A stretch of 34,085 nt of DNA from an uncultured Alphaproteobacteria bacterium (GCA_944389685.1 CALXNF010000010.1:1-34085), one strand, 5' to 3'. Shown: positions 582 through 26,861, counted from the stretch's first letter. A program made the numbers and translations. Notes: a model not told the origin generated them from the sequence alone.

Positions 582-1618
582 AGGGGTATATATTTCATAC
601 TGTTCATGTGTTAAAAAGATTTGTCGTTTTATTTATTTCTATTTTTGTGTCGTTTGGTGCACTAGCGTTTGAGCTTCAGGATTTAACCGCCTATAATGCC
701 GTCGCTATAAAAACTATGAAACCGACAGATACAATTCGCCCCGATAAAAAATACTCTTTGCAAATTACTGGTACAAAAGACCTAGAAAAAGTTTTAGGTA
801 CGGAAAAGAAAGAATTTAAAACCTTGTATGTGTATGTTGGTGATACGCAAGTTGAAGAATACAATACTGCTAAATGGTATTATTATTATCAACCGTCTTG
901 GAATGGTCGCGGACGTGGTAAATTAAACTATAAGCGTAATCAAATAACAGAATCTGGTAAAGCGGGAGATACTTTATTTGTCGCAAGAAAAAATAATGAT
1001 GAATTGTTGTTTCTTATTGTAGAGAAAGACAATCCTATAAAACAAAAACTTTTGCATAGCTTAGGTTTAGAAAGTGAGAAAGTCATAAAAGAACCATCAT
1101 TTTGGGAGCGATTGTGGGGAACTAAATCAGAAGAAACATCGGAATATGAAATAGAGGAAGAAAAGTTATCTATACCGAAAATCTCGGAAAAATCATGGGT
1201 GCGTGTTTACTTTACCCCAGGCAATGATTGTGAAAACAATATCATCGCAGAAATCAATCAAGCAAAGAAGATAGATATAGCCGTCTATTCTATTACCAAC
1301 CAGAACATAGTTGATGCGATAATAGACGCCAAAGAACGTGGGGCAAAAATAAGGGTAATTACAGATAGGTTGCAATCAGCTGGTAAATATTCTTTGGCGG
1401 AAGAATTAGAATCAGCAGGAATACCTGTTATCACTAACGTAAAGCATAAGATAATGCATAACAAGTTTGCAATATTTGACGGGAAACGCATAGAAAGCGG
1501 TAGTTATAATTGGACGGACAGCGCGACAAAATCAAACGCAGAAAATTGTATGTTCTTTGACCAAGAAGATAAAGCGTTTACTAAGCAATTTGAATATTTA
1601 TGGGATTTGTATCAATAA
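572..1618 (+). CDS. Phospholipase D / Nuc-family endonuclease with an extra N-terminal domain and an N-terminal hydrophobic (signal/anchor-like) helix
   Basis: The C-terminal ~140 aa has a single HKD motif, HNKFAIFDGKRIESGSYNW (nt 1457-1510), and Nuc-like flanks (WVRVYFTPGND..., AENCMFF). aa ~34-205 form a domain I do not recognise. The longest start is TTG 572, which overlaps the MTase by 10 nt. An alternative GTG at 608 gives MLKRFVVLFISIFVSFGALA|FE. Confidence 0.8.
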   Translation: MRIKGYIFHTVHVLKRFVVLFISIFVSFGALAFELQDLTAYNAVAIKTMKPTDTIRPDKKYSLQITGTKDLEKVLGTEKKEFKTLYVYVGDTQVEEYNTAKWYYYYQPSWNGRGRGKLNYKRNQITESGKAGDTLFVARKNNDELLFLIVEKDNPIKQKLLHSLGLESEKVIKEPSFWERLWGTKSEETSEYEIEEEKLSIPKISEKSWVRVYFTPGNDCENNIIAEINQAKKIDIAVYSITNQNIVDAIIDAKERGAKIRVITDRLQSAGKYSLAEELESAGIPVITNVKHKIMHNKFAIFDGKRIESGSYNWTDSATKSNAENCMFFDQEDKAFTKQFEYLWDLYQ

Positions 1619-1620
1619 TA

Positions 1621-1645
1621 AAAACGGCGTTTTGCCGTTTTTATT
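1621..1645. terminator. Bidirectional intrinsic terminator between convergent genes
   Basis: Hairpin AAAACGGC-GTTT-GCCGTTTT, flanked by an A-run on the left and a T-run on the right. It lies between stop 1616-1618 (+) and stop 1645-1647 (-). Confidence 0.75.
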
Positions 1646-1965
1646 TATCTTAGACCTTTTGCGCGACAGCATGCAGATGCAGCACTGCGCCAATCAGAAT
1701 ATTTCTTTGACGGGGAACGTAAGTCTTGCCATGCTTGCCATCCGCTACATTTTTTATCTGAACCTGTGCCAGTACATTTTGCGTATCTACGTAATGTGCA
1801 AGTTTGGTTAGACGTCTTACCGGTATCTGTAGTACATTTGACGACAACGGTTTGGTTTTTTGCGTCATTCTTTCCCAGTTCTTTAGAAGATAAAAGTTGG
1901 TATGCGTTTGCACCATAAAAAGTTGTGCCAATTAAACATAATGCAATAAATAATTTTTTCATCAT
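1645..1965 (-). CDS. Small secreted Lys-rich, Cys-containing protein (hypothetical)
   Basis: The tracked ORF is 1645..1980. The likely start is ATG 1965 (MMKKLF...), preceded by the SD-like GGGGGTG. Signal peptide MMKKLFIALCLIGTTFYGANA|YQ. The mature ~85 aa has 6 Cys, including a CC pair. I recognise no family motif. Confidence 0.6.
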   Translation of the reverse strand: MMKKLFIALCLIGTTFYGANAYQLLSSKELGKNDAKNQTVVVKCTTDTGKTSNQTCTLRRYAKCTGTGSDKKCSGWQAWQDLRSPSKKYSDWRSAASACCRAKGLR

Positions 1966-1989
1966 ATTATGCACCCCCATTCATAATTA

Positions 1990-2018
1990 ATTATAACCGG
2001 TCATCTAGAAAATTACAA
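1990..2018 (-). promoter_or_regulatory. Possible sigma70-type promoter for the small secreted protein gene
   Basis: On the minus strand: TTGTAA, 17 nt, TATAAT, about 20 nt upstream of ATG 1965. Such matches arise easily in AT-rich DNA. Confidence 0.3.
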
Positions 2019-2025
2019 TGGGTAA

Positions 2026-3774
2026 TTATTCGCCGGTCGTTTCTTTAGTGGTCCAAGGTTCATCATTCATTACCAGAAAATATAGTTCCGGATTTTCCGT
2101 GCCGGGATTTCTGATGATTGGGCGGACTACATAAATATCTACATTACAAGCGTGGTTGTTTTTTTCTTTTTGAACTTCTTCCAGATTAAAATGGAATTTA
2201 TTTGCAAAGTCCATTGCTTGCAAGAATGCGGCATCATCATCGGCCGCACTGTATGCGTCCCCTGCCCACATCAGCCACATACCATGATTAACGACGTTTT
2301 CTTGACCCTGCAGGTCATCGGCAGATAATAATGTTAATGGTTTAAATTCAATATCGCTTGTAAATTCACCCGTACTTGTTTCCGACCAGTCGTACACTCC
2401 CCCGATAAACTTAAGAGCACCATATATTAATCCACCAGCACTTTCTAGTTTTGCTAAGGCACCAGCGTTAGCTAGTGTAGAATGAAATAACCAATCTTTT
2501 ACTCGACCGGAAAAAGTACTGCTACGTGCAACTTTTGCGGCACTTCGTAACTGTTTCCCCCCTGTGTTCAGTGCTTTTACGGTTCGCCATGTTCTGGCAA
2601 TCATATTGCCCCTTTGGGCAGGTTTCAGAACGCTTTTTAGCTCTCGGCGGTATTTGTTTAAGGAAGAAAAAGTTTCGCTATATTCTTTATATTTCTTTAC
2701 GTTTTCATCATTCTTTTCTAATTCTTTTAGGGTTTTTGTATAATTTTCAATCTCTTTAGTTTTTTCAAGATATTTTGCTTCATCAATTGTTCTGTCGATA
2801 TTTTTTAATTCTTCGGTTGCTTTCGCATATTTCTGCCCTAATTTTATGTAGTTTTTTACCGAGGTTTCTTCCCGTAACGTACGCATTGATGTGGATAATG
2901 TTTTAAGTATTTTTGACGCGCGTGCAGATTTTGTGGCCCCTAAAATTGCGGCACCACCACCTGCTGTTACAACTGTTATTGCTACGTCCAAACCTATTTC
3001 CAGATAAGAAATCCATTGTAAATTGACGTCCCCCGCAACATAATAATCGTTACTGTCATCTTCTAAATTTACGGTTTCTTTCATAGCCAGATTTATCATG
3101 GCGTCATCATAAGTCAAAGCAGATTTGCCGGTACATTGACCATTTTGTGGAAATATTGTATCAATGTTATCTTCTATATATTTTAAAGAAACCGTATTGT
3201 TTTTCCCTTTCCCGATGAAATTTTCTAAGCTGCCGGATTGTACCACCATAATTGCATACCATGCAGGATCTGTATTAGTCCAGATAGCATCATCGTTAGG
3301 ATCGCCAACGCGTGGATTGGGGTCAGAAGAAGGCAACGTTTTTTTATCGCCTAATGTTATTCGTTGCTTTAATATTTTTGGTTGAGTTTCATAGTTTATA
3401 ACGATTTCACGACCATTTTGGAAAGTATATGTTATCGGTAAAAAAGTTATTGTTTCTTCTTCTGGAAGATCTGTAAATTCCGGACATTTTAATACATTGC
3501 GCAAAACGTCCGGTTGTTGCATCGTTTGGTAAATCCATTTTTTTATATCTTCTTCTGAAGCGCTTTCGTCGATTAATGAAGAATTTTCTATTAAAGAATT
3601 TCTAAAAATGGTTGTGGAACATGTTGTATTATCTGGGGCTCGTGCTAATAATTCTTCTGCAGGGATGAAGTCAGGTGAGTCAACTGGTAAAATTATATCT
3701 TCATTCATATCTGCGCAAAGCGCCACGTTTGTGGCGCAGAATATAAAAACAAATGGCATAAGTATTGATTTCAT
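2026..3774 (-). CDS. Hypothetical secreted/membrane protein (582 aa) with a Gly/Ala-rich hydrophobic hairpin and a coiled-coil loop
   Basis: Signal peptide MKSILMPFVFIFCATNVALCA|D. Hydrophobic segment AITVVTAGGGAAILGA at aa ~254-281 (nt 2932-3015). K/E-rich, heptad-like stretch at aa ~300-385. Second hydrophobic segment AGGLIYGALKFIGGVY at aa ~432-461 (nt 2392-2481). No family motif recognised. Confidence 0.7.
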   Translation of the reverse strand: MKSILMPFVFIFCATNVALCADMNEDIILPVDSPDFIPAEELLARAPDNTTCSTTIFRNSLIENSSLIDESASEEDIKKWIYQTMQQPDVLRNVLKCPEFTDLPEEETITFLPITYTFQNGREIVINYETQPKILKQRITLGDKKTLPSSDPNPRVGDPNDDAIWTNTDPAWYAIMVVQSGSLENFIGKGKNNTVSLKYIEDNIDTIFPQNGQCTGKSALTYDDAMINLAMKETVNLEDDSNDYYVAGDVNLQWISYLEIGLDVAITVVTAGGGAAILGATKSARASKILKTLSTSMRTLREETSVKNYIKLGQKYAKATEELKNIDRTIDEAKYLEKTKEIENYTKTLKELEKNDENVKKYKEYSETFSSLNKYRRELKSVLKPAQRGNMIARTWRTVKALNTGGKQLRSAAKVARSSTFSGRVKDWLFHSTLANAGALAKLESAGGLIYGALKFIGGVYDWSETSTGEFTSDIEFKPLTLLSADDLQGQENVVNHGMWLMWAGDAYSAADDDAAFLQAMDFANKFHFNLEEVQKEKNNHACNVDIYVVRPIIRNPGTENPELYFLVMNDEPWTTKETTGE

Positions 3775-3781
3775 AAATTTT

Positions 3782-5284
3782 TTAATCGTCTATTCTTATT
3801 GTGTCGTCTACAACCATATTTTCTGTTGATATTTCAAGGGTATCGGGATCATACATATAAAAACCTGCATACATATCAATATCGTCTTCGTTCCAGTCAC
3901 ATTTGCCTTGATCTTTTACGGAAGAGATGATTGCATTTTTTACTTTTTCCCATTGTTGTGTATCCATTATTAACACATTCCCGCGAGAACCGTCTGGATT
4001 TATTTCATACAAAACATAGTCTTCTTCGTTAACACAATATGTTTTTCCTAAAATCGGTTTAAAAACTTTTGTATTGATATCATCATTTGCCAGACCATCG
4101 CCGCAGACGGTGTAACAACCCTCATTATGATCAACGTCTTGACAGTTTATGATGTCGTTTGATAAATCGGAATTAACAAGACTGTACAAAGTTGAACCAG
4201 CATGTTTTGCAGCATTGCTTCCTATTAAATAAACTAAAGCACCGCCATCAAAAAATTTTGTCGCTTTAGAAGCTAAATTTTTCTTGATAATTTTTGTATA
4301 ATTTTTGACTCCGGTTTTTAATACCCCTTTTCCTCCTAAGCGAGCAGCAGCACTAACCGAACTAGCCATACTTAAATCAATGGCAGATCGTGCTAATAAA
4401 TGACTCCCTGTACGAGTCATACTTCTTGCTGTGTTGGTTGCCCCAAGTTTCGCAATACCTTTCGCAGTACTTTTTAATCCTGCGCCAATTGCTGCCCGAC
4501 CTGCTGTTACGGCTGCGCCACCAGCGCCACCAGCAAAAAATGTTAGAATTGTTGCAGCGGCAGTTGCTCCCCAACCAACAATATCAATGGTCATTTGCCA
4601 AGAACGGTTGTTTTCACATAGTATGGCACCTCGTTTTTGCATCGTCGAATCTAATACCTGAGAGATCTCTATAAGAACTTCATCCCAGTTTATATTTATT
4701 CCATAATTTTCATCTACTACTTCCCCAGATAAAGCGATTAATGCAGATTTATATTTATACAAGTTATCGTCGTTTCCTAAAAAGTCTAAAATAAATGCAT
4801 TATCTAATCTTGCTGTAGGGTCTGCTTTATTGGCATTTATGTATGCAGTAACTAAATCAACAAAGAATACTCGCTGAGCTTCTGTATCTGGGCCTAATAT
4901 ATTGTAGACAATAATAGAAAGAATCTCTTGGTCAGCATTTGAAAAATCACCCTGAGAGCCATATCGCATTCTTTTGCGTACAATATCCCAATTTATAGTT
5001 AGGCGAATTTCTGGGTTATTATAAATGACAGTATCTATGTTTTTGGCGAATAAATCCGGATAATTGGAACAAGTTGTACGATAAGATGCGGCATTCGCAA
5101 CCGCACCGTTATAATCAGCCGCCAACCCATTGATAGCATTTTCTACTTGTGAATAAAGTTCACAAGCAACCAATTCATCGCAATCTGTATAGCTCATACA
5201 CTCGCTGGAAACTGCCGCATTACCGGCGAAAGAAAAAAAAGGAGATATCAATATAGGATAAAAAATAGTTTTTAATTTTATCAT
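3782..5284 (-). CDS. Hypothetical secreted/membrane protein (500 aa), same architecture as the 582-aa neighbour
   Basis: Signal peptide MIKLKTIFYPILISPFFSFAGNA|A. Cys-bearing N- and C-terminal domains. Gly/Ala-rich hydrophobic segment WGATAAATILTFFAGGAGGAAVTAGRAAIGAGL at aa 233-270 (nt 4475-4588). A basic loop follows, then FFDGGALVYLIGSNAA at aa ~343-358. The start overlaps the upstream stop as ATGA. Confidence 0.7.
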   Translation of the reverse strand: MIKLKTIFYPILISPFFSFAGNAAVSSECMSYTDCDELVACELYSQVENAINGLAADYNGAVANAASYRTTCSNYPDLFAKNIDTVIYNNPEIRLTINWDIVRKRMRYGSQGDFSNADQEILSIIVYNILGPDTEAQRVFFVDLVTAYINANKADPTARLDNAFILDFLGNDDNLYKYKSALIALSGEVVDENYGININWDEVLIEISQVLDSTMQKRGAILCENNRSWQMTIDIVGWGATAAATILTFFAGGAGGAAVTAGRAAIGAGLKSTAKGIAKLGATNTARSMTRTGSHLLARSAIDLSMASSVSAAARLGGKGVLKTGVKNYTKIIKKNLASKATKFFDGGALVYLIGSNAAKHAGSTLYSLVNSDLSNDIINCQDVDHNEGCYTVCGDGLANDDINTKVFKPILGKTYCVNEEDYVLYEINPDGSRGNVLIMDTQQWEKVKNAIISSVKDQGKCDWNEDDIDMYAGFYMYDPDTLEISTENMVVDDTIRIDD

Positions 5285-6198
5285 TTTTTTGCATCTTTTA
5301 ACGTTTGAGATATCTTTGCTATCAGTTGAGCACGATTAATAGAATTTGTTTGTTGTTGGCATTCTGGCGCTGTGGGATTCTTTTCGCAATACAGAGCCTT
5401 ATTAACTTTTGCCATTTGCTCCATGCGAGTCAAATAATCTTCTTCTGGTTCAATTGTAGGAATGATGTATGCAGACTTATCTGCATATGGTGCATAACCT
5501 GCCGCATCGTTTTGTATTCGTTGGGTAAACGTTAAATCTGATGCTGTCTTCGGAAATTCTGCTTTTGCTAATTGTGTGGTGCCAGATGTCGCATTAGTAG
5601 ATTGTAAGTTTTCTAATTCTTTTTTCCTTTCTAGCATTTCTTGAGCCCAAGGGTCACCGTTCCACGTTGGCAGCTGTGGCTGATAAGGATTTTGAAATTC
5701 TACTTTTTGTGTGTTTACACTTGTGTTAGACGTTGTTGCACTAGGAAACGGAACGTACCCACTCGTTGGTACAACCAAAGCTTTTTGTGATACGTAGTTT
5801 TTAAATTCTGTATCAATAAAACCTGAACATGGCGTCACATAATTTTTATTGGGCAGACTAGCCAGTTGAACGGTTATAGTTGGGCGCGCGTCGTCTACAT
5901 CTATGCCCGCACAATTATTACGCGTTGAGCAATACGAAGCAACTAGCGCACTTACAATTGTTTGACATTCACTTGTGTCTACATCTGTTCCTTGGATATA
6001 AACAGGAACGGGCATACGTTGATTGTATGGGCCATTTGGATCCCAAAACGGGTTAGAAGAATAATTTTGAACGTTTTGAATTTGACCGTATTGTGAAAAT
6101 GGTGTCGTTCCAGTATTTTGAAAAGTCGTCGCCATTACACTAGAGGTGCTAACATAAAAAAACGTACAAATTATTATAGAAGTTAAAATTTTATTCAT
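5281..6198 (-). CDS. Hypothetical secreted protein (305 aa)
   Basis: Signal peptide MNKILTSIIICTFFYVSTSSVMA|T. Q/N/P/T-rich, with 6 Cys in the mature part. SD-like AGGGTGATAGAGAGA upstream. The stop overlaps the next gene's ATG. No family motif recognised. Confidence 0.65.
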   Translation of the reverse strand: MNKILTSIIICTFFYVSTSSVMATTFQNTGTTPFSQYGQIQNVQNYSSNPFWDPNGPYNQRMPVPVYIQGTDVDTSECQTIVSALVASYCSTRNNCAGIDVDDARPTITVQLASLPNKNYVTPCSGFIDTEFKNYVSQKALVVPTSGYVPFPSATTSNTSVNTQKVEFQNPYQPQLPTWNGDPWAQEMLERKKELENLQSTNATSGTTQLAKAEFPKTASDLTFTQRIQNDAAGYAPYADKSAYIIPTIEPEEDYLTRMEQMAKVNKALYCEKNPTAPECQQQTNSINRAQLIAKISQTLKDAKK

Positions 6199-6224
6199 TT
6201 CTCTCTATCACCCTTTATAAATGA

Positions 6225-6698
6225 TTATATCAAAAAGCTCATTGTAAGCAAAGTTAAAATTCCGGCGCCGATGAAAAATGGAGCAAATGGTATGAACTTT
6301 TGTTTGTGAATGGTTCCCCATATTACCCCGCTAATGCAAGAAATTACCAGAGCTATTGCTAAACCCGTAACCCCAAGCCATATTCCGCCAACGCTGATCA
6401 GCTTTATATCACCCATCCCTATGGGGGTATTTGATGCGGTGGAATGTTTGCGGACCGGAATTTTAAAAAATTTTCCTATTACCGTTGCTAAGATATAGCC
6501 GGACGTTGCCGCAATAACTGATTCGGTTAAATCAAATTTCCACGGAAAAAAAGTGACAATTATTAAACCTGTTAGTAATAGTGGGAATAGATACACGTCT
6601 GGGATTATACGCCGGCGCCAATCTGCAACAGATATACACCAAGCGCACCAAGCTGCAATCGCTAATAATATAAAGAAAAAAACTGTAGTGATATTCAT
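6225..6698 (-). CDS. Prepilin-peptidase-type (A24, GxGD) intramembrane aspartyl protease, short form without methyltransferase domain
   Basis: Polytopic membrane protein. First Asp motif ADWRRRIIPD, second Asp motif GMGDIKL, and PFAPFFIGAG near the C-terminus. Strong SD (AAGGGGGA) upstream of the ATG. Confidence 0.8.
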   Translation of the reverse strand: MNITTVFFFILLAIAAWCAWCISVADWRRRIIPDVYLFPLLLTGLIIVTFFPWKFDLTESVIAATSGYILATVIGKFFKIPVRKHSTASNTPIGMGDIKLISVGGIWLGVTGLAIALVISCISGVIWGTIHKQKFIPFAPFFIGAGILTLLTMSFLI

Positions 6699-6769
6699 AA
6701 TTCCCCCTTGCCTTTCGATTCGAAACTATGCTACAATTATATTGATATATATAACAAGGATTTTTTGAT

Positions 6770-7366: not shown

Positions 7367-9412
7367 ATGGAAAAGCTAAGTTTGAATTTTAAAGATTATG
7401 ATATAGGTGGAACCCTTCTGCGGGCGTATTATGACGCTAGTGATAACTTAATATTCGTCATAGATAATACAATTGATGATAGAAAACTTAATGTTTTGTT
7501 AGTAATTAATCCTGTCGGTGATAGAAAATGGGACGATATTTTAGAAAATGACTACGGAATAGATTTAGAAACAGTTAGACCGAAAAAAAACAATAAATAT
7601 CAGAAGCTTGATATTGAATATAGCGGGTTGGAAGAATATGAAGCTTTGATAAACGCATATGTGTCTGGTAAAAACATTCAGACGGAATTAGATGCTTTGT
7701 TGGATTTCAGAGAACGTTCTGTAGTTAATTCTGCACAAGAGCGTTTAACCGTTGCAGAAGCTAATGCTGAAAAAGCCCGAGAAACCATTTTAAAAACGAA
7801 AGAAAGTATTGAAGATTTACAGCTTAGATTAAAGCAGTTACGCACAAAGTTGTCGCAACAAAAGAAACAGGTCGGACGGGAACCGACAAAAAAATCGGCA
7901 TCAAAGATATTGCGCACAGACGCACAAATTGATGCCATAAACGAAAAATTAAGTCGTGCGAAGAAACGTCTGACGAATGCACAGCGGCGCTTAGTCGTTG
8001 CCGATGAGGATGCAGAGTTAGCTAGGGAAGTATTATCAAAACCTTCTTCCTTTACTGGCAGGCGCGATCTTGCTGCGTTACGGCAGACGGCGGTTGCCCC
8101 GAGACAAGCAAGTGAAATTATTGCGTTTAAAGACGAAAACGACGAAAAGACGTTACCTGAAGACTTTGACGAGTCAGTTGAGCTAACAGAAAATATAGAT
8201 TTTCAAAACGAAGAAAAAAAGGCGGAAATAATGGCTGATGAAGAAAAAAAAGAAGAAGTGAAACCTTTGTTTGATCAGGATCCAGAAATACTAGATGAGG
8301 AAATTGCGTTTAAACCGATAGAATTTGGTGTTTCTAGTCCGGATAGTTCAAACCCTGTTTCAGAAAAACCGGAAATTTATGAAAATATAGTAGAAGATAA
8401 ACCGCTTGCTTTTACGCCGCCTGAAGATAATGCCGCATCTTCTAAGCCTATAAACGTTACACCGGTAACTAATCAAAGCGAAGAGGCGGATATGCAAAGA
8501 GTAACGCCGCCAGTTTTGGATACAATAAAGTCAGTAGAAGAACCAGAGATAAGTACAAACAAAAGCGTGCCGCCTGTTCAGCAAGCTGCATCCCAGCCTT
8601 CTGCTGCACGTCCTGTGCCACCGGCTGCGACGTTATCAAATGCAACTGCGCGCCCTGTTTCTCCAATCACTGGAAATGTTTTGCCAACAAACCCGGCTCC
8701 TCGTAAGCCAACGCTGATATATTATATAATGTTAGTATTGCTGATAGGTTTGTCTATTTTCACGTTGTGGTTATACCAAAAGAATACTAATGAAAAAGTA
8801 CCAGATTTGACCGCGACTATACAGACTACAGAAAGTGTTGCTTCTCAACAAGATGAGGGCTTAGATGTTAGTGCGGATAGTCCGTTTTTGCCAGAGATAA
8901 AAGTAGAGGAACCTGCCCCTGCTCCTGAGGTTCAAATAGTTGTGGAAGCGCCTGTGGTTACCCCAGAGCCTGTTATAACTCCTGAACCTGTTGTTGAACC
9001 AGAAGTACTAGAAAGTACTTTACCAGAAGTTATGGAACAGATTCCATCAAATGAACCAGAAGCTGCGGTCCCAGTTGCGGACGTTACGGTTGAAACTGTT
9101 GTTAGTTATCCTGCACCTGTTGTCGAAGAAGAGCCGATAGTCCCAGTACAAACAGAAGATGAAATTTTAACAAGTAAACCGTCTTATAACGTTTCTCAGA
9201 ACGAGAATATGTTTGTCGCCGCACCAGAGTACGATACAGAGGTAATTAATAACACAAATTCAGCAAATTATGAGGATTTGCCGACCTGTCCTGATGGTAC
9301 TGCGCCAGATGTAAATGGTTGTTGTACTGGTGAAGTTTTGACGGATATGGGGGATATGGGCTTTAACTGTTGCCCACAGGCGGGGGGTGATTGTTTCCCA
9401 CCATTGTTTTAA
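7367..9412 (+). CDS. Hypothetical bitopic membrane protein (681 aa): cytoplasmic coiled-coil, acidic/Pro-rich regions, Cys-rich C-terminal tail
   Basis: SD GAGAGGGA. Coiled-coil-like stretch at aa ~110-225. Single TM segment LIYYIMLVLLIGLSIFTLWLY (nt 8711-8776). A P/E/V-rich repeat-like region (VVTPEPVITPEPVVEPEV). Terminal CPDGTAPDVNGCCTGE...FNCCPQAGGDCFPPLF. Confidence 0.7.
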   Translation: MEKLSLNFKDYDIGGTLLRAYYDASDNLIFVIDNTIDDRKLNVLLVINPVGDRKWDDILENDYGIDLETVRPKKNNKYQKLDIEYSGLEEYEALINAYVSGKNIQTELDALLDFRERSVVNSAQERLTVAEANAEKARETILKTKESIEDLQLRLKQLRTKLSQQKKQVGREPTKKSASKILRTDAQIDAINEKLSRAKKRLTNAQRRLVVADEDAELAREVLSKPSSFTGRRDLAALRQTAVAPRQASEIIAFKDENDEKTLPEDFDESVELTENIDFQNEEKKAEIMADEEKKEEVKPLFDQDPEILDEEIAFKPIEFGVSSPDSSNPVSEKPEIYENIVEDKPLAFTPPEDNAASSKPINVTPVTNQSEEADMQRVTPPVLDTIKSVEEPEISTNKSVPPVQQAASQPSAARPVPPAATLSNATARPVSPITGNVLPTNPAPRKPTLIYYIMLVLLIGLSIFTLWLYQKNTNEKVPDLTATIQTTESVASQQDEGLDVSADSPFLPEIKVEEPAPAPEVQIVVEAPVVTPEPVITPEPVVEPEVLESTLPEVMEQIPSNEPEAAVPVADVTVETVVSYPAPVVEEEPIVPVQTEDEILTSKPSYNVSQNENMFVAAPEYDTEVINNTNSANYEDLPTCPDGTAPDVNGCCTGEVLTDMGDMGFNCCPQAGGDCFPPLF

Positions 9413-9452: not shown

Positions 9453-9484
9453 AAAATACCGCCATAATTTTGGCGGTGTTTTTA
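9453..9484. terminator. Bidirectional intrinsic terminator
   Basis: Stem AAATACCGCC / GGCGGTGTTT around an 8-nt loop, flanked by an A-run and a T-run. It lies between the convergent 681-aa gene and acpS and overlaps the acpS stop. Confidence 0.7.
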
Positions 9485-9859
9485 TAATTTTTCTATTACT
9501 ACCATTGCTGCGGAATAATCGTCTTGGTCTGTAATAGATAAATGAATAGAAGCTTGACCATTAGTTAATTCTTTTAAAGCAAGCTTTGCACCGCCAGTTA
9601 ATAACAAATCTGGTCGTCCTGCATCGTCATGCGTGACAGAAACATCAGAAAAACCGATTTCATCACCAAAACCGGTACCCAAGGCTTTTAGACATGCTTC
9701 CCTCGCAGCCCAGAAATTAGCAAGGTGTTTTTCTGCGTTTGCATTGTCTGCTTCTGCATATTCAAGTTCTTTTTTTGTAAATATACGTTGTTTTTTGAAT
9801 GCAGACCAATCAAGAAATCTATCGCATTCAACTAAATCAATTCCAATACCTACTATCAC
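9482..9859 (-). CDS. acpS: Holo-[acyl-carrier-protein] synthase
   Basis: IVGIGIDLVECDRF..., FWAAREACLKALGTG..., 125 aa. GTG start at 9859 with SD GGGAG. The tracked ORF 9482..10021 over-extends across the tRNA gene. Confidence 0.85.
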   Translation of the reverse strand: MIVGIGIDLVECDRFLDWSAFKKQRIFTKKELEYAEADNANAEKHLANFWAAREACLKALGTGFGDEIGFSDVSVTHDDAGRPDLLLTGGAKLALKELTNGQASIHLSITDQDDYSAAMVVIEKL

Positions 9860-9977
9860 GGATAACTCCCTAGTTATTTTTATTGATATGCGAATACTAG
9901 TAATATTTTTGCGATTCGTGCAAGCATAAAATATATTCTTGCTTTTAATTGGTATGAATTGTATAAATATTGCTACG

Positions 9978-10055
9978 TCGGGGTGTAGCTCAGCCTGGTA
10001 GAGTACTTGCATGGGGTGCAAGGGGTCGCAGGTTCGATTCCTGTCACCCCGACCA
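9978..10055 (+). tRNA. tRNA-Pro (anticodon GGG), CCA encoded
   Basis: Acceptor stem CGGGGTG/CACCCCG, D-arm GCTCAGCCTGGTAGAG, anticodon loop ATGGGGT, T-arm GCAGGTTCGATTCCTGT, discriminator A plus CCA. Folded by eye; one C-A mismatch at the top of the anticodon stem. Confidence 0.85.
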
Positions 10056-25155: not shown

Positions 25156-25656
25156 ATGACAAATACGTTTTCTTTATTAACGCTTTTTACCGGCGATATA
25201 ATGACGTTGTTCATTTCTTTGGTACTGGTCTTGGGTAGTATCATGTCTTGGGCAATAATTATTGAAAAAATTCGTTTGTGGCATTTTCAAAAGAAAAATC
25301 CAGTTCGTGTTAAAAATGGAGACAATCTGTCTTTAATCGCGGATAAGTTAATTCGCCCATTTGATAAAAATTTATGGTTTTTATCAATGGTTTCTTATGT
25401 TGCCCCATTTATAGGTCTGTTCGGAACTATTTGGGGGGTTATGGATTCTTTCGCTTCAATCGGGGTAAATCAATCCGTTTCAATCGGTGTAATCGCCCCT
25501 GGTTTGGCGACTGCGTTGGGAACAACTGCGTTGGGCTTAATTGCTGCGGTGCCTGCTGCGATTGCTTATCAGTATTTTAGTAAAAAATCTGATGATTTGT
25601 ATGATGCTTTGATTGAAACTTGTAAAGAATTAAAAGATAGTAAATCAAAAAAATAA
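25156..25656 (+). CDS. tolQ: TolQ (MotA/TolQ/ExbB proton-channel family), short cytoplasmic loop
   Basis: Three TM segments, signature PFIGLFGTIWGVMDSF, and the TALGLIAAVPA helix. 166 aa. Confidence 0.85.
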   Translation: MTNTFSLLTLFTGDIMTLFISLVLVLGSIMSWAIIIEKIRLWHFQKKNPVRVKNGDNLSLIADKLIRPFDKNLWFLSMVSYVAPFIGLFGTIWGVMDSFASIGVNQSVSIGVIAPGLATALGTTALGLIAAVPAAIAYQYFSKKSDDLYDALIETCKELKDSKSKK

Positions 25657-25669
25657 TCGGGGGCAGACA

Positions 25670-26074
25670 ATGTCACGCAGAAGAGTTAGAAATTCAGACG
25701 CATCAATTTCTTTGACACCGATGATTGACATCATGACGGTTTTGTTGGCTGTTTTTATGGTGACTACGCCTATGTTGACTACGGGTATTGATTTAAATTT
25801 GCCTAAGGCCGGTAATTCGGCTTTGACCGGTAATGATCATGCGGTTCAAATAAGCGTTGATAAAACTGGGCATTACTATGTTGGTAAAACAGAGATGTCT
25901 CAGGAGGATGCGGTTAAGAGGGTCATAGCGATGCGCGGTGAAAATCCTGATTTAACCATAATGATAAACGGTGACGCTGCGGCAGATTACGGTGCTGTTA
26001 TGTCCATAATGGGAAAATTGAAAAGTGCGGGCTTTCAAAAAGTTGGGTTGCGTACACAGTTAGATGTTGAATAA
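25670..26074 (+). CDS. tolR: TolR (ExbD/TolR family)
   Basis: ISLTPMIDIMTVLLAVFMV TM segment containing the conserved Asp, plus a periplasmic domain. Confidence 0.88.
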   Translation: MSRRRVRNSDASISLTPMIDIMTVLLAVFMVTTPMLTTGIDLNLPKAGNSALTGNDHAVQISVDKTGHYYVGKTEMSQEDAVKRVIAMRGENPDLTIMINGDAAADYGAVMSIMGKLKSAGFQKVGLRTQLDVE

Positions 26075-26861
26075 GTATATAATGAATCTAGGAAACAGAT
26101 TTTCTTCGGAAAATGTTTTGATGTCTGTGTGCGGACATCTTGCGTTGATTGCAATAATGTTGACATCGTTTGCTTTGGTCGTGGATAGGGCAAAATTAGT
26201 TGCGCCAGATAGAATAGAAATTTTAGAAATTGATTTAAATGCCGTACGTGTCGGTGGTGACGAGACAATATTGCATAATGTAAATGCTGATGCTGAACCA
26301 GAGCCGGAACCGGAACCAGAACCGGATGCCCCTGCCCCTGCACCTGTGCCGGATCCTGTTGAAGAAGTTTCTGACGAACCTATTGAGGCGCCGACGTTGA
26401 TTGAAAAAGAAACGCCTAAACAAGAAGTCCCAGAACCTGTCGTGAAACCCGTTGAAGATCAAGTAAAAGAAGATAAAAAAGAAGAAGCGCCCAAAAAGAA
26501 AAAAACGGTTGTTCGTGTAAATAGAGAAGTTGTTTCATTAGATAGAACGTTGACAGTATCTGTTGTTGATGCATTGCGCGTGGCAATGACACGCTGTTGG
26601 AATATAGATACAAAGCGTTCAGATATATCGGATATTCGGGCAGTAGCTCATCTGACTATGCGACGTAATGGTACTGTTCGTGATGTATGGTTTGAATCCG
26701 CGGCCCGCGCGGAAACAGATCCTGCATTTGCATATGTATTAGACACTATTCGTGCAGCAATAGACCTTTGTCAACCTTTCAAGATGTTGCCGACCGGTGA
26801 ATTTGATAAATGGGAAAAAATTCAGCTAACGTTTTACCCAACTCAGGGTAAAGTAATGTGA
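26064..26861 (+). CDS. tolA: TolA-like cell-envelope integrity protein
   Basis: N-terminal TM segment, an EPEPEPEPEPDAPAPAP / Lys-Glu linker, and a C-terminal TolA/TonB-type domain (RCWNID...LCQPF..LP). The start is ATG 26064 (overlapping tolR) or ATG 26082. Confidence 0.75.
   Translation: MLNKYIMNLGNRFSSENVLMSVCGHLALIAIMLTSFALVVDRAKLVAPDRIEILEIDLNAVRVGGDETILHNVNADAEPEPEPEPEPDAPAPAPVPDPVEEVSDEPIEAPTLIEKETPKQEVPEPVVKPVEDQVKEDKKEEAPKKKKTVVRVNREVVSLDRTLTVSVVDALRVAMTRCWNIDTKRSDISDIRAVAHLTMRRNGTVRDVWFESAARAETDPAFAYVLDTIRAAIDLCQPFKMLPTGEFDKWEKIQLTFYPTQGKVM

Follow-up and report, generated by a model that had tools for sequence, protein, structure and literature searches.

An A24 prepilin-peptidase-type protease gene heads a conserved block of exported-protein genes beside gcrA in gut Alphaproteobacteria

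Introduction

Peptidases of the TadV/CpaA type (MEROPS/Pfam family A24) are polytopic and consist of a single domain of ~155 amino acids (aa) with the Asp motifs D-x6-IPD and GxGD. Here, we analyze a gene for a protease of this kind, g1 or A24, in a 34,085-nt stretch of DNA from an uncultured Alphaproteobacteria bacterium (GCA_944389685.1 CALXNF010000010.1:1-34085). We refer to this whole stretch as the window and to five open reading frames (ORFs) on its minus strand, g1 to g5, as the block. As at TadV/CpaA loci, g1 is the first gene of an envelope operon; unlike those loci, g1 has no Flp, TadA/CpaF, TadB/C, RcpA/CpaC, or TadE/F in its operon or in the window, and, unlike PilD/GspO, it lacks a methyltransferase domain. 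The block is not a Tad, type IV pilus, or type II secretion locus.

Other described systems resemble the block in part. Archaeal PibD processes non-filament secreted proteins, the sugar-binding proteins of the Sulfolobus bindosome; PibD substrates carry N-terminal class-III signals, whereas g2 to g5 carry Sec-type signals. In the exosortase/PEP-CTERM, rhombosortase/GlyGly-CTERM, and archaeosortase/PGF-CTERM systems, the gene for an intramembrane-type protease is likewise linked to lineage-specific secreted proteins, and a Gly-rich membrane segment is followed by basic residues, as it is in g4 (T.G.G....G.TK.ARASR). Those proteases belong to a different family, however, and the g4 segment is internal rather than C-terminal, and the parallel is an analogy only, with cleavage putative. 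GH108 muramidases, such as Brucella SagA, assist secretion machines, and a gene of some relatives that joins a g2 domain to GH108 would fit local peptidoglycan remodeling for envelope assembly; unlike in the SagA-type setting, the GH108 gene is absent from the window, which also has no type IV secretion genes, and the muramidase could equally act on neighboring cells. Many of the relatives' proteins encoded at the position of g3, hereafter the slot, are rich in GxxxG, like the Gly-zipper outer-membrane proteins (Gly-zipper_YMGG/Omp/OmpA; Rickettsia 17-kDa antigen type), but these matches are weak (E=1.6e-4 to 2e-3, below the Pfam cut-offs), none was found for g3 or g4 of the window, and the rest of the slot proteins (Thr/Pro-rich linkers, Cys-rich C-domains) is unrelated to that class. 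The analogies with sorting proteases, PibD, and GH108 muramidases do not amount to family membership.

The clade that carries the block, Enterousia / Rs-D84, is widespread in human, livestock, and bird guts and is as yet uncultured. Across the clade as sampled, the module is universal, and a control region that hardly varies connects it with gcrA, a cell-cycle regulator gene. An initial annotation of the window had offered, as one of two possibilities, that the block is an undescribed envelope or secreted module with a GxGD protease dedicated to non-pilin substrates. The results below bear this out in part: the block is conserved, lineage-specific, and drawn from families absent in public libraries, and A24 always heads it, but dedication of the protease to such substrates is conjectural. 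With a hypervariable subunit that is probably exposed and an occasional muramidase, it is a concrete candidate for the clade's cell-contact machinery. Lineage-specific surface operons are common, and to this extent the block is ordinary; its universal A24 linkage, internal paralogy and modularity, and invariant gcrA-side region are unusual. Should A24 indeed process proteins of the g2 to g5 type, GxGD prepilin peptidases would have a substrate range wider than class-III signal peptides; otherwise, the locus still adds three or four envelope protein families that are new and restricted to the clade.

Results

The block is conserved in a reduced-genome gut clade

We scanned GTDB, with one genome per species, for g4 loci and analyzed the best 80 of the 201 found. 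These loci come from gut or fecal metagenome-assembled genomes, plus a few from other anoxic habitats, and are labeled 'Candidatus Enterousia', uncultured Alphaproteobacteria, or Rickettsiales; one lies on a circular 958-kb genome. The window thus derives from a gut bacterium in an alphaproteobacterial clade with reduced genomes, Rs-D84 / Ca. Enterousia. Enterousia falls in the order Rs-D84 and has genomes of 0.75–1.0 Mb (PMC12306168). Enterousia lacks flagella, a respiratory chain, and standard transporters, and is proposed to rely on partner cells; in the same comparison of three reduced-genome lineages, type IV pilus genes are named only for UBA9783 and go unmentioned for Rs-D84 (PMC12306168).

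Wherever the contig reaches, tblastn and ORF calling gave the same arrangement: p681 and gcrA run in one direction and, divergently from gcrA, A24 is followed by g2, the slot gene, g4, an optional gene, and g5. The A24-g2-slot-g4-g5 order, whose conservation in relatives the initial annotation had named as a check, is held in about 75 of the 80 species-level genomes. Median identity to the window across loci is 76% for g5, 66% for gcrA, 57% for g4 (range among relatives 49–76%), 55% for A24 (43–72%), and 50% for g2. The median gap from A24 to g2 is 27 nt, and in 70 of 74 genomes the two genes are -1 to 37 nt apart. Past g5, synteny is lost: the window has a PLD nuclease gene and a methylase fragment there, locus L018 has four tRNA genes, and in other relatives this place is taken by an rmlA-like gene or by one for a Cys-rich protein of ~900 aa. 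Despite these breaks and the turnover of the slot, A24 to g4 keep their order as far as the contigs extend, and g5 still comes after them, inverted once (L038). The GC content of the block equals that of its flanks.

In the window, the ORF list reproduced the five co-directional genes and the spacings first reported for them (Table 1), namely 26 nt between A24 and g2, a 4-nt overlap of g2 and g3, 7 nt between g3 and g4, and 60 nt between g4 and g5 when g5 starts at the ATG at 1965. The latter is probably the true start, as a ribosome-binding site (RBS), GGGGGTG, precedes it and the resulting length matches the 105–106 aa of the orthologs. The 71-nt divergent gap upstream of A24 also follows from the coordinates, and the gene beyond it on the other strand is gcrA (PF07750, E=3e-29).

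The protease is a short member of family A24

Gene 1 had been described as an A24 protease with the motifs ADWRRRIIPD and GMGDIKL; both are present, and the protein matches PF01478 (Peptidase_A24) with E=1.1e-16 and 61.6 bits (cut-off 26.5) over profile positions 2–103 of 104. The domain spans residues 14–128 of a polytopic membrane protein of TadV/CpaA-like size. We found no further Pfam domain above cut-off and no DiS-P-DiS/N-methyltransferase domain, and at 157 aa the protein has no room for an N-terminal methyltransferase domain. The catalytic Asp pair, D26 in ADWRRRIIPD and D97 in GMGDIK, is conserved at each position in at least 98% of 71 aligned sequences, and 74 of 75 orthologous loci retain D[WFL][RK]RRIIPD and GMGDIK unaltered, the exception being truncated by a contig end. 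This pattern indicates that the catalytic motifs are under strong purifying selection in a genome of ~900 genes. By its motifs and profile match, g1 is a member of peptidase family A24 in the short TadV/CpaA form, with predicted activity.

The 120 homologs listed by our search were clade orthologs alone; 'A24 family peptidase' genes carried on plasmids are ~30% identical to g1. In their source records, the orthologs are annotated as 'prepilin peptidase' or 'A24 family peptidase'. A literature search on orphan prepilin peptidases found nothing relevant.

The downstream products are exported proteins of clade-restricted families

That all four downstream products begin with Sec-type signals rather than class-III leaders, as initially described, agrees with our reading of the sequences and with a hydropathy scan. 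Searches of g2 to g5 against Pfam, NCBIfam, PHROGs, and PDB sequences and profiles gave nothing significant, and Foldseek searches with predicted structures, run for g2 and g4, gave no known-family match either. The earlier statement that these proteins belong to no recognizable family therefore stands with respect to Pfam, NCBIfam, and PDB; it needs qualification within the clade, as g3 and g4 are paralogs of each other and relatives carry the g2 domain joined to a GH108 muramidase.

The g4 protein has a signal peptide, an N-domain, and an invariant Gly-rich membrane segment (~259–283) followed by a conserved ARAS motif. A coiled coil, which differs in length among orthologs, leads to a C-terminal domain that is conserved to a very high degree (LLSADDLQGQENV.NHGMW, CNVDIYVVRP). 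At E<=0.001, at least 787 homologs were found among 8000 candidates scored, and among the 120 listed none is named or has a Pfam domain. A g4 profile matched only 135 proteins among 1.84 billion cluster representatives, which indicates that the family is confined to the clade, and no g4 relative was found on 2.9 million viral contigs. The AlphaFold2 (AF2) model of g4, built from 31 sequences, has a mean pLDDT (per-residue confidence) of 54 and is confident only in blocks 51–140 (mostly 76–89) and in the coiled coil at ~290–375; neither Foldseek with this model nor PDB profile searches gave a match (E<0.1). In some g4 orthologs (L017, L043, L061, L068; P0053, P0120), a coiled-coil unit of ~70 aa is duplicated, as expected of a spacer, and the longest orthologs, P0053 and P0120, reach 659–660 aa.

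The window's g3 has a signal peptide, an N-domain, a Gly/Ala-rich hydrophobic segment (231–259), an Ala/Lys-rich region, and a Cys-rich C-domain, and is detectable by tblastn in only 15 of the 80 loci. Its position is hypervariable, with at least four architectures among relatives: in one, a signal peptide is followed by Thr/Pro-rich repeats, Gly-zipper-like segments, and a Cys-rich C-domain, and others have several C-terminal hydrophobic segments or g4-like bodies, free or fused to g2. Such turnover is extreme for a gene between conserved neighbors. Slot genes of relatives, for example L005 1657–2793, L041 8292–9989, and L062 8904–10001, encode long mucin-like repeats rich in Thr, Pro, and Gly, and these and other slot proteins share a Cys-rich C-domain, SQLFSETDCL.DP.TG.FTCCNT...

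Profile comparisons place g3 and g4 as distant paralogs in one clade-restricted superfamily. Direct comparison of the two by BLASTP and hhalign was not significant, and the homology is therefore transitive, through g4-like paralogs. The latter (P0336–P0346) share with g4 the second half of the N-domain, the membrane segment, and the C-domain, and several open with a complete g2 domain. In hhalign, the g3 family matched these paralogs with E=4e-40 (1.9e-20 for the N-domain alone), compared to E>=0.01 for reversed and column-shuffled controls, and g4 matched them with E=1.1e-37 at 28% identity. The superfamily plan consists of a signal peptide, an ectodomain, a Gly/Ala-rich membrane segment, a variable helical spacer, and a conserved C-terminal domain, with the motifs WY.I.VV..GSLD and NDYYV in the N-domain and LLS.DD..G.EN..SHG.W and C.VDIYVV.P in the C-domain.

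In alignments, g2 is an exported protein that combines the invariant motif YGQIQNVQNYSSNPFW..PYNQRMP.PVY in its N-terminal part with a helical core in which four Cys are conserved. None of its 225 homologs is named, and the sole Pfam domain among them is PF00266, in one 398-aa match. An AF2 model from 101 sequences (mean pLDDT 72.9) shows a Cys-stabilized helical core, with blocks 81–140 above 90 and the invariant motif at low confidence (~50); Foldseek of this model against PDB and BFVD gave nothing with E<0.1. Domain hidden Markov models run on the loci showed that the optional gene, which separates g4 from g5 in about 25 genomes and is absent from the window, is a g2 paralog. Two fusions of g2 to GH108 were examined (L034 11653–13323, Glyco_hydro_108 at 37.5 bits; L036 11719–12789, 51.9 bits; cut-off 21.2), and in one of them PG_binding_3 scored just below its cut-off (23.5 vs 24.6 bits). 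In some other relatives, the g2 domain (g2_N) is fused to g4-like bodies. Judged by these fusions, g2_N is a reusable N-terminal module.

The small exported protein g5 is strongly basic (net charge ~+11), has 6 Cys in its mature part, and is the most conserved product of the block, as its identity to the window (median over 76 loci) shows; its Cys pattern is conserved too. Lipoprotein identity was considered for g4 and g5 and rejected, as the residues before the conserved Cys form no lipobox.

A nearly invariant control region separates gcrA from A24, and g5 has its own predicted promoter

The gcrA/A24 intergenic region is nearly invariant in an alignment of sequences from 72 species whose proteins share only ~55% identity. 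It reads CCTTGTTATA...TAGCATAGTTTCGANTCGAAAGGCAAGGGGGAAA-ATG, and the predicted divergent promoters of gcrA and A24 within it overlap (Table 1). At least one GANTC occurs in all 73 gcrA/A24 intergenic regions that we inspected. In Caulobacter, GcrA acts through GANTC, the methylation site of CcrM, and this precedent together with the GANTC palindrome makes cell-cycle-linked control of the block plausible. The arrangement suggests control of gcrA and the protease operon that is linked to methylation or to GcrA and is possibly mutually exclusive.

Upstream of g5, the sequence CCCATTGTaTTTT...TATAAT has TTGT and TATAAT cores that are at least 90% conserved across 76 aligned sequences and are kept whatever gene precedes, including the g2-GH108 paralog. 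The spacing of A24, g2, the slot gene, and g4, in turn, leaves no room for an internal promoter. Because g5 has its own conserved promoter, the coupled unit is A24-g2-slot-g4, with g5 as an adjacent unit, and of the five-gene operon initially proposed only the tight coupling of the first four genes is retained.

Table 1. Coordinates of the genes and predicted signals of the block within the window.
Feature	Position	Strand	Product or sequence	Basis or remark
g1 (A24)	6225-6698	-	157 aa	ORF list and Pfam
g2	5281-6198	-	305 aa	ORF list
g3 (slot occupant)	3782-5284	-	500 aa	ORF list
g4	2026-3774	-	582 aa	ORF list
g5	1645-1965 (ORF as listed 1645-1980, 111 aa)	-	106 aa from likely ATG 1965	
gcrA/A24 divergent control region	6699-6769		71 nt	Intergenic length median 73 nt among relatives
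A24-sense promoter-like element	6757-6752 (TTGTTA), 6733-6728 (TAGCAT)	-	TTGTTA-18-TAGCAT	RBS GGGGGA
gcrA promoter-like element	6708-6737	+	TTGCCT-18-TACAAT	Promoter scan; palindrome inside spacer
Palindrome	6713-6725		TTTCGANTCGAAA	GANTC at 6717-6721
Predicted g5 promoter, sigma-70-type	1990-2018	-	TTGTAA-17-TATAAT	Promoter scan, 10/12 matches
Hairpin with A- and T-runs	1618-1644		AAAAACGGCAAAACGCCGTTTTTATT	Between convergent g5 and PLD genes

Searches for pilins and for substrates of A24

The absence from the window of a pilin or pseudopilin, secretin, ATPase, or platform gene, noted at the outset, was confirmed by a motif scan and by Pfam searches of ORFs of at least 100 aa. A scan of every frame of the window yielded no prepilin motif, and class-III signal scans of the window and of 83 related loci (from a few kb to ~22 kb each) gave spurious matches only. 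Next to A24 there is no Flp gene (G/xxxxEY), and the 71-nt upstream gap has no ORF. No Pfam domain of TadA/CpaF, TadB/C, RcpA/CpaC, or RcpC/CpaB was found in g2 to g5 (E<=0.1) or in the window ORFs of at least 100 aa. The possibility that g2 to g5 are themselves type IV pilins or pseudopilins was rejected, as their N-termini are of the Sec type and carry no class-III signal, and that of a pilin-like C-terminal fragment of g4 was rejected as unsupported by its predicted secondary structure.

The initial annotation had also named the Gly/Ala-rich membrane segments as the obvious candidate substrates. In g3 and g4 alike, one central, moderately hydrophobic stretch of this kind precedes basic residues. 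Because it follows an exported N-domain, it would cross the membrane from outside to inside, the reverse of a prepilin, and this speaks against the segments as substrates.

Discussion

We tentatively favor the view that the block encodes a clade-specific envelope module and that A24 matures some component of it. Anchored in the membrane, the products would form an assembly that sits at the surface or spans the periplasm and serves in contact with other cells or with the host. In this assembly, g4, g2, and g5 would be the conserved base and the slot protein an exposed subunit that can be exchanged; some species would add a dedicated peptidoglycan-cutting subunit. A24 would be retained since it matures a component that the assembly requires, which may be an unseen protein with a class-III signal encoded elsewhere or, less likely, a site at the second, inside-to-outside hydrophobic segment of g3/g4-type proteins, after a basic cluster. 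In favor of this proposal, the A24-g2 junction stays constant while the slot and the positions past g5 rearrange; the signal peptides, conserved Cys, and Gly-zipper-like and Thr/Pro-rich segments of the products indicate an extracytoplasmic location; the organism lacks flagella and standard transporters and may depend on partner cells; and the block is chromosomal, fixed beside gcrA, and not viral.

Several observations weigh against it. Because gcrA and p681 are syntenic everywhere and the genome is compact, the adjacency of A24 and its neighbors is weak evidence of functional coupling. There is no class-III signal in g2 to g5, whose N-termini have a hydrophobic core and then an AxA-like site. 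The central Gly/Ala-rich segment appears to run in the wrong direction for a prepilin, and the second hydrophobic segment is short and has neither a conserved Gly at -1 nor a Glu at +5; membrane topology here comes from hydropathy. The poor g4 model and the lack of Foldseek matches for g2 and g4 count on the same side, as does the separate promoter of g5. The function of the block is a prediction from sequence, and no structural homology supports it.

Alternatively, A24 may be a housekeeping neighbor that serves Flp or type IV pilins or pseudopilins encoded elsewhere and is co-transcribed with an unrelated surface-protein operon merely by virtue of genome compactness, a possibility that we take seriously although we find it doubtful. 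The products g2 to g5 lack the class-III signal and so differ from known A24 substrates, all of which, to our knowledge, carry such signals at the N-terminus. The whole neighborhood is syntenic across the clade, the orthologs are annotated merely as prepilin or A24 family peptidases, and Patescibacteria, which are likewise tiny-genome episymbionts, retain type IV pili. Set against this are the naming of type IV pilus genes for UBA9783 but not Rs-D84 (PMC12306168), the lack of a pilin-like ORF in the 83 related loci scanned, and the A24-g2 junction, which stays near 27 nt in 70 of 74 species despite rearrangement of the slot and the region past g5. The opposite idea, that A24 was recruited in a clade that has lost its canonical type IV filaments and now matures a Sec-dependent apparatus of the envelope or of cell contact composed of g2, g3/g4, and g5, is in our judgment unlikely. 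If true, A24 would be the first prepilin-peptidase homolog of bacteria whose substrates are neither pilins nor class-III proteins, and its hosts probably live attached to other cells. A specific form of processing, in which A24 cuts g3/g4-type proteins at the second segment, after WGxR[IF]KR[GA]..., and releases a membrane-anchored C-domain, we consider improbable. In g4-like paralogs, a basic cluster is followed by G/A and a hydrophobic run rich in Gly, Ala, and Thr just before the conserved C-domain, and this segment is the only one in the operon with a prepilin-like predicted orientation; but the basic-cluster motif is not conserved in g4 orthologs or g3, the run is merely 12–27 residues long and in g4 has charged residues inside and falls below the hydropathy threshold, and the predicted C-domain is beta-alpha-beta-beta at low pLDDT and is not pilin-like. 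We also know of no internal A24 cleavage site in any system.

Two further explanations are very improbable. One takes the block as a degenerate Tad/Cpa locus in which g2, g3, and g4 come after tadV, as at canonical loci, and are CpaB/RcpC, a secretin, and other Tad parts that diverged beyond recognition. The protease does have the short TadV/CpaA size, and 305, 500, and 582 aa are roughly the sizes of CpaB and CpaC in Caulobacter cpa loci, but there is no SAF, RcpC, Secretin, T2SSE, or TadE Pfam match even at E<=0.1, g2 and g4 are predicted to be mostly helical, g3 and g4 are paralogs of one another, the 71-nt gap contains no flp, and the window contains no ATPase or platform gene; this explanation is already contradicted. 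The other sees a remnant of a phage or mobile element, with genes of, for example, the tape-measure, lysin, or holin type. Endolysins commonly contain GH108 domains, and the Gly-zipper region of the L005 slot protein matches PHROG tail-lysin and tape-measure profiles (E=1e-9 to 1e-7). These matches, however, cover only a low-complexity Gly-rich stretch, and the window's own proteins reach no better than E>=0.005; the viral contigs gave no g4 relative; the position by gcrA is fixed in all species; the GC content matches the flanks; and neither integration hallmarks nor virion-associated homologs were seen.

Other features of the window

Directly after the g5 stop, a hairpin and T-run, read from the sequence, agree with the terminator initially placed there. 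The hairpin AAAAACGGCAAAACGCCGTTTTTATT likely serves both g5 and the PLD gene as a bidirectional intrinsic terminator, as judged from its A- and T-runs; a consensus terminator scan of the region did not list it. Beyond the hairpin, there are a PLD-family nuclease-like gene (572–1618, PF13091) and, at 84–581, part of a gene for an adenine methyltransferase of the EcoRI type. Most relatives lack this pair at this position and have tRNA or other genes instead; the stretch 84–1618 looks like an inserted restriction/defense-type islet. Locus L018 (13349–15934) and about 20 other loci encode, a little downstream of g5, a Cys-rich signal-peptide protein of ~820–940 aa with no Pfam match. In L018, the four tRNA genes, on the opposite strand, and an opposite-strand ORF lie between g5 and this large gene.

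On the far side of gcrA, p681 (7367–9412, 681 aa) is present in all relatives at 31–62% identity and has no family match. Its product has an N-terminal coiled coil, one transmembrane segment (449–467), a region rich in Pro, Glu, and Val, and a Cys-rich C-terminus. The remaining window ORFs of at least 100 aa belong to housekeeping Pfam families or have no Pfam match; those matched are a phosphopantetheinyl transferase, CorA, Adk, S1, ThyA, trigger factor, S9/L13, ArgS, a two-component pair, RuvB, TolQ/TolR, DnaE, and RsmH. At 25156–26861, the TolQ- and TolR-like genes are followed by a 265-aa ORF without a Pfam match that is possibly a divergent TolA, and this indicates a diderm envelope with a Tol system. 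The phosphopantetheinyl transferase ORF (9482–10021, TTG start) overlaps an opposite-strand tRNA-Pro(GGG) gene at 9979–10055, and its true start is probably further downstream than this TTG.

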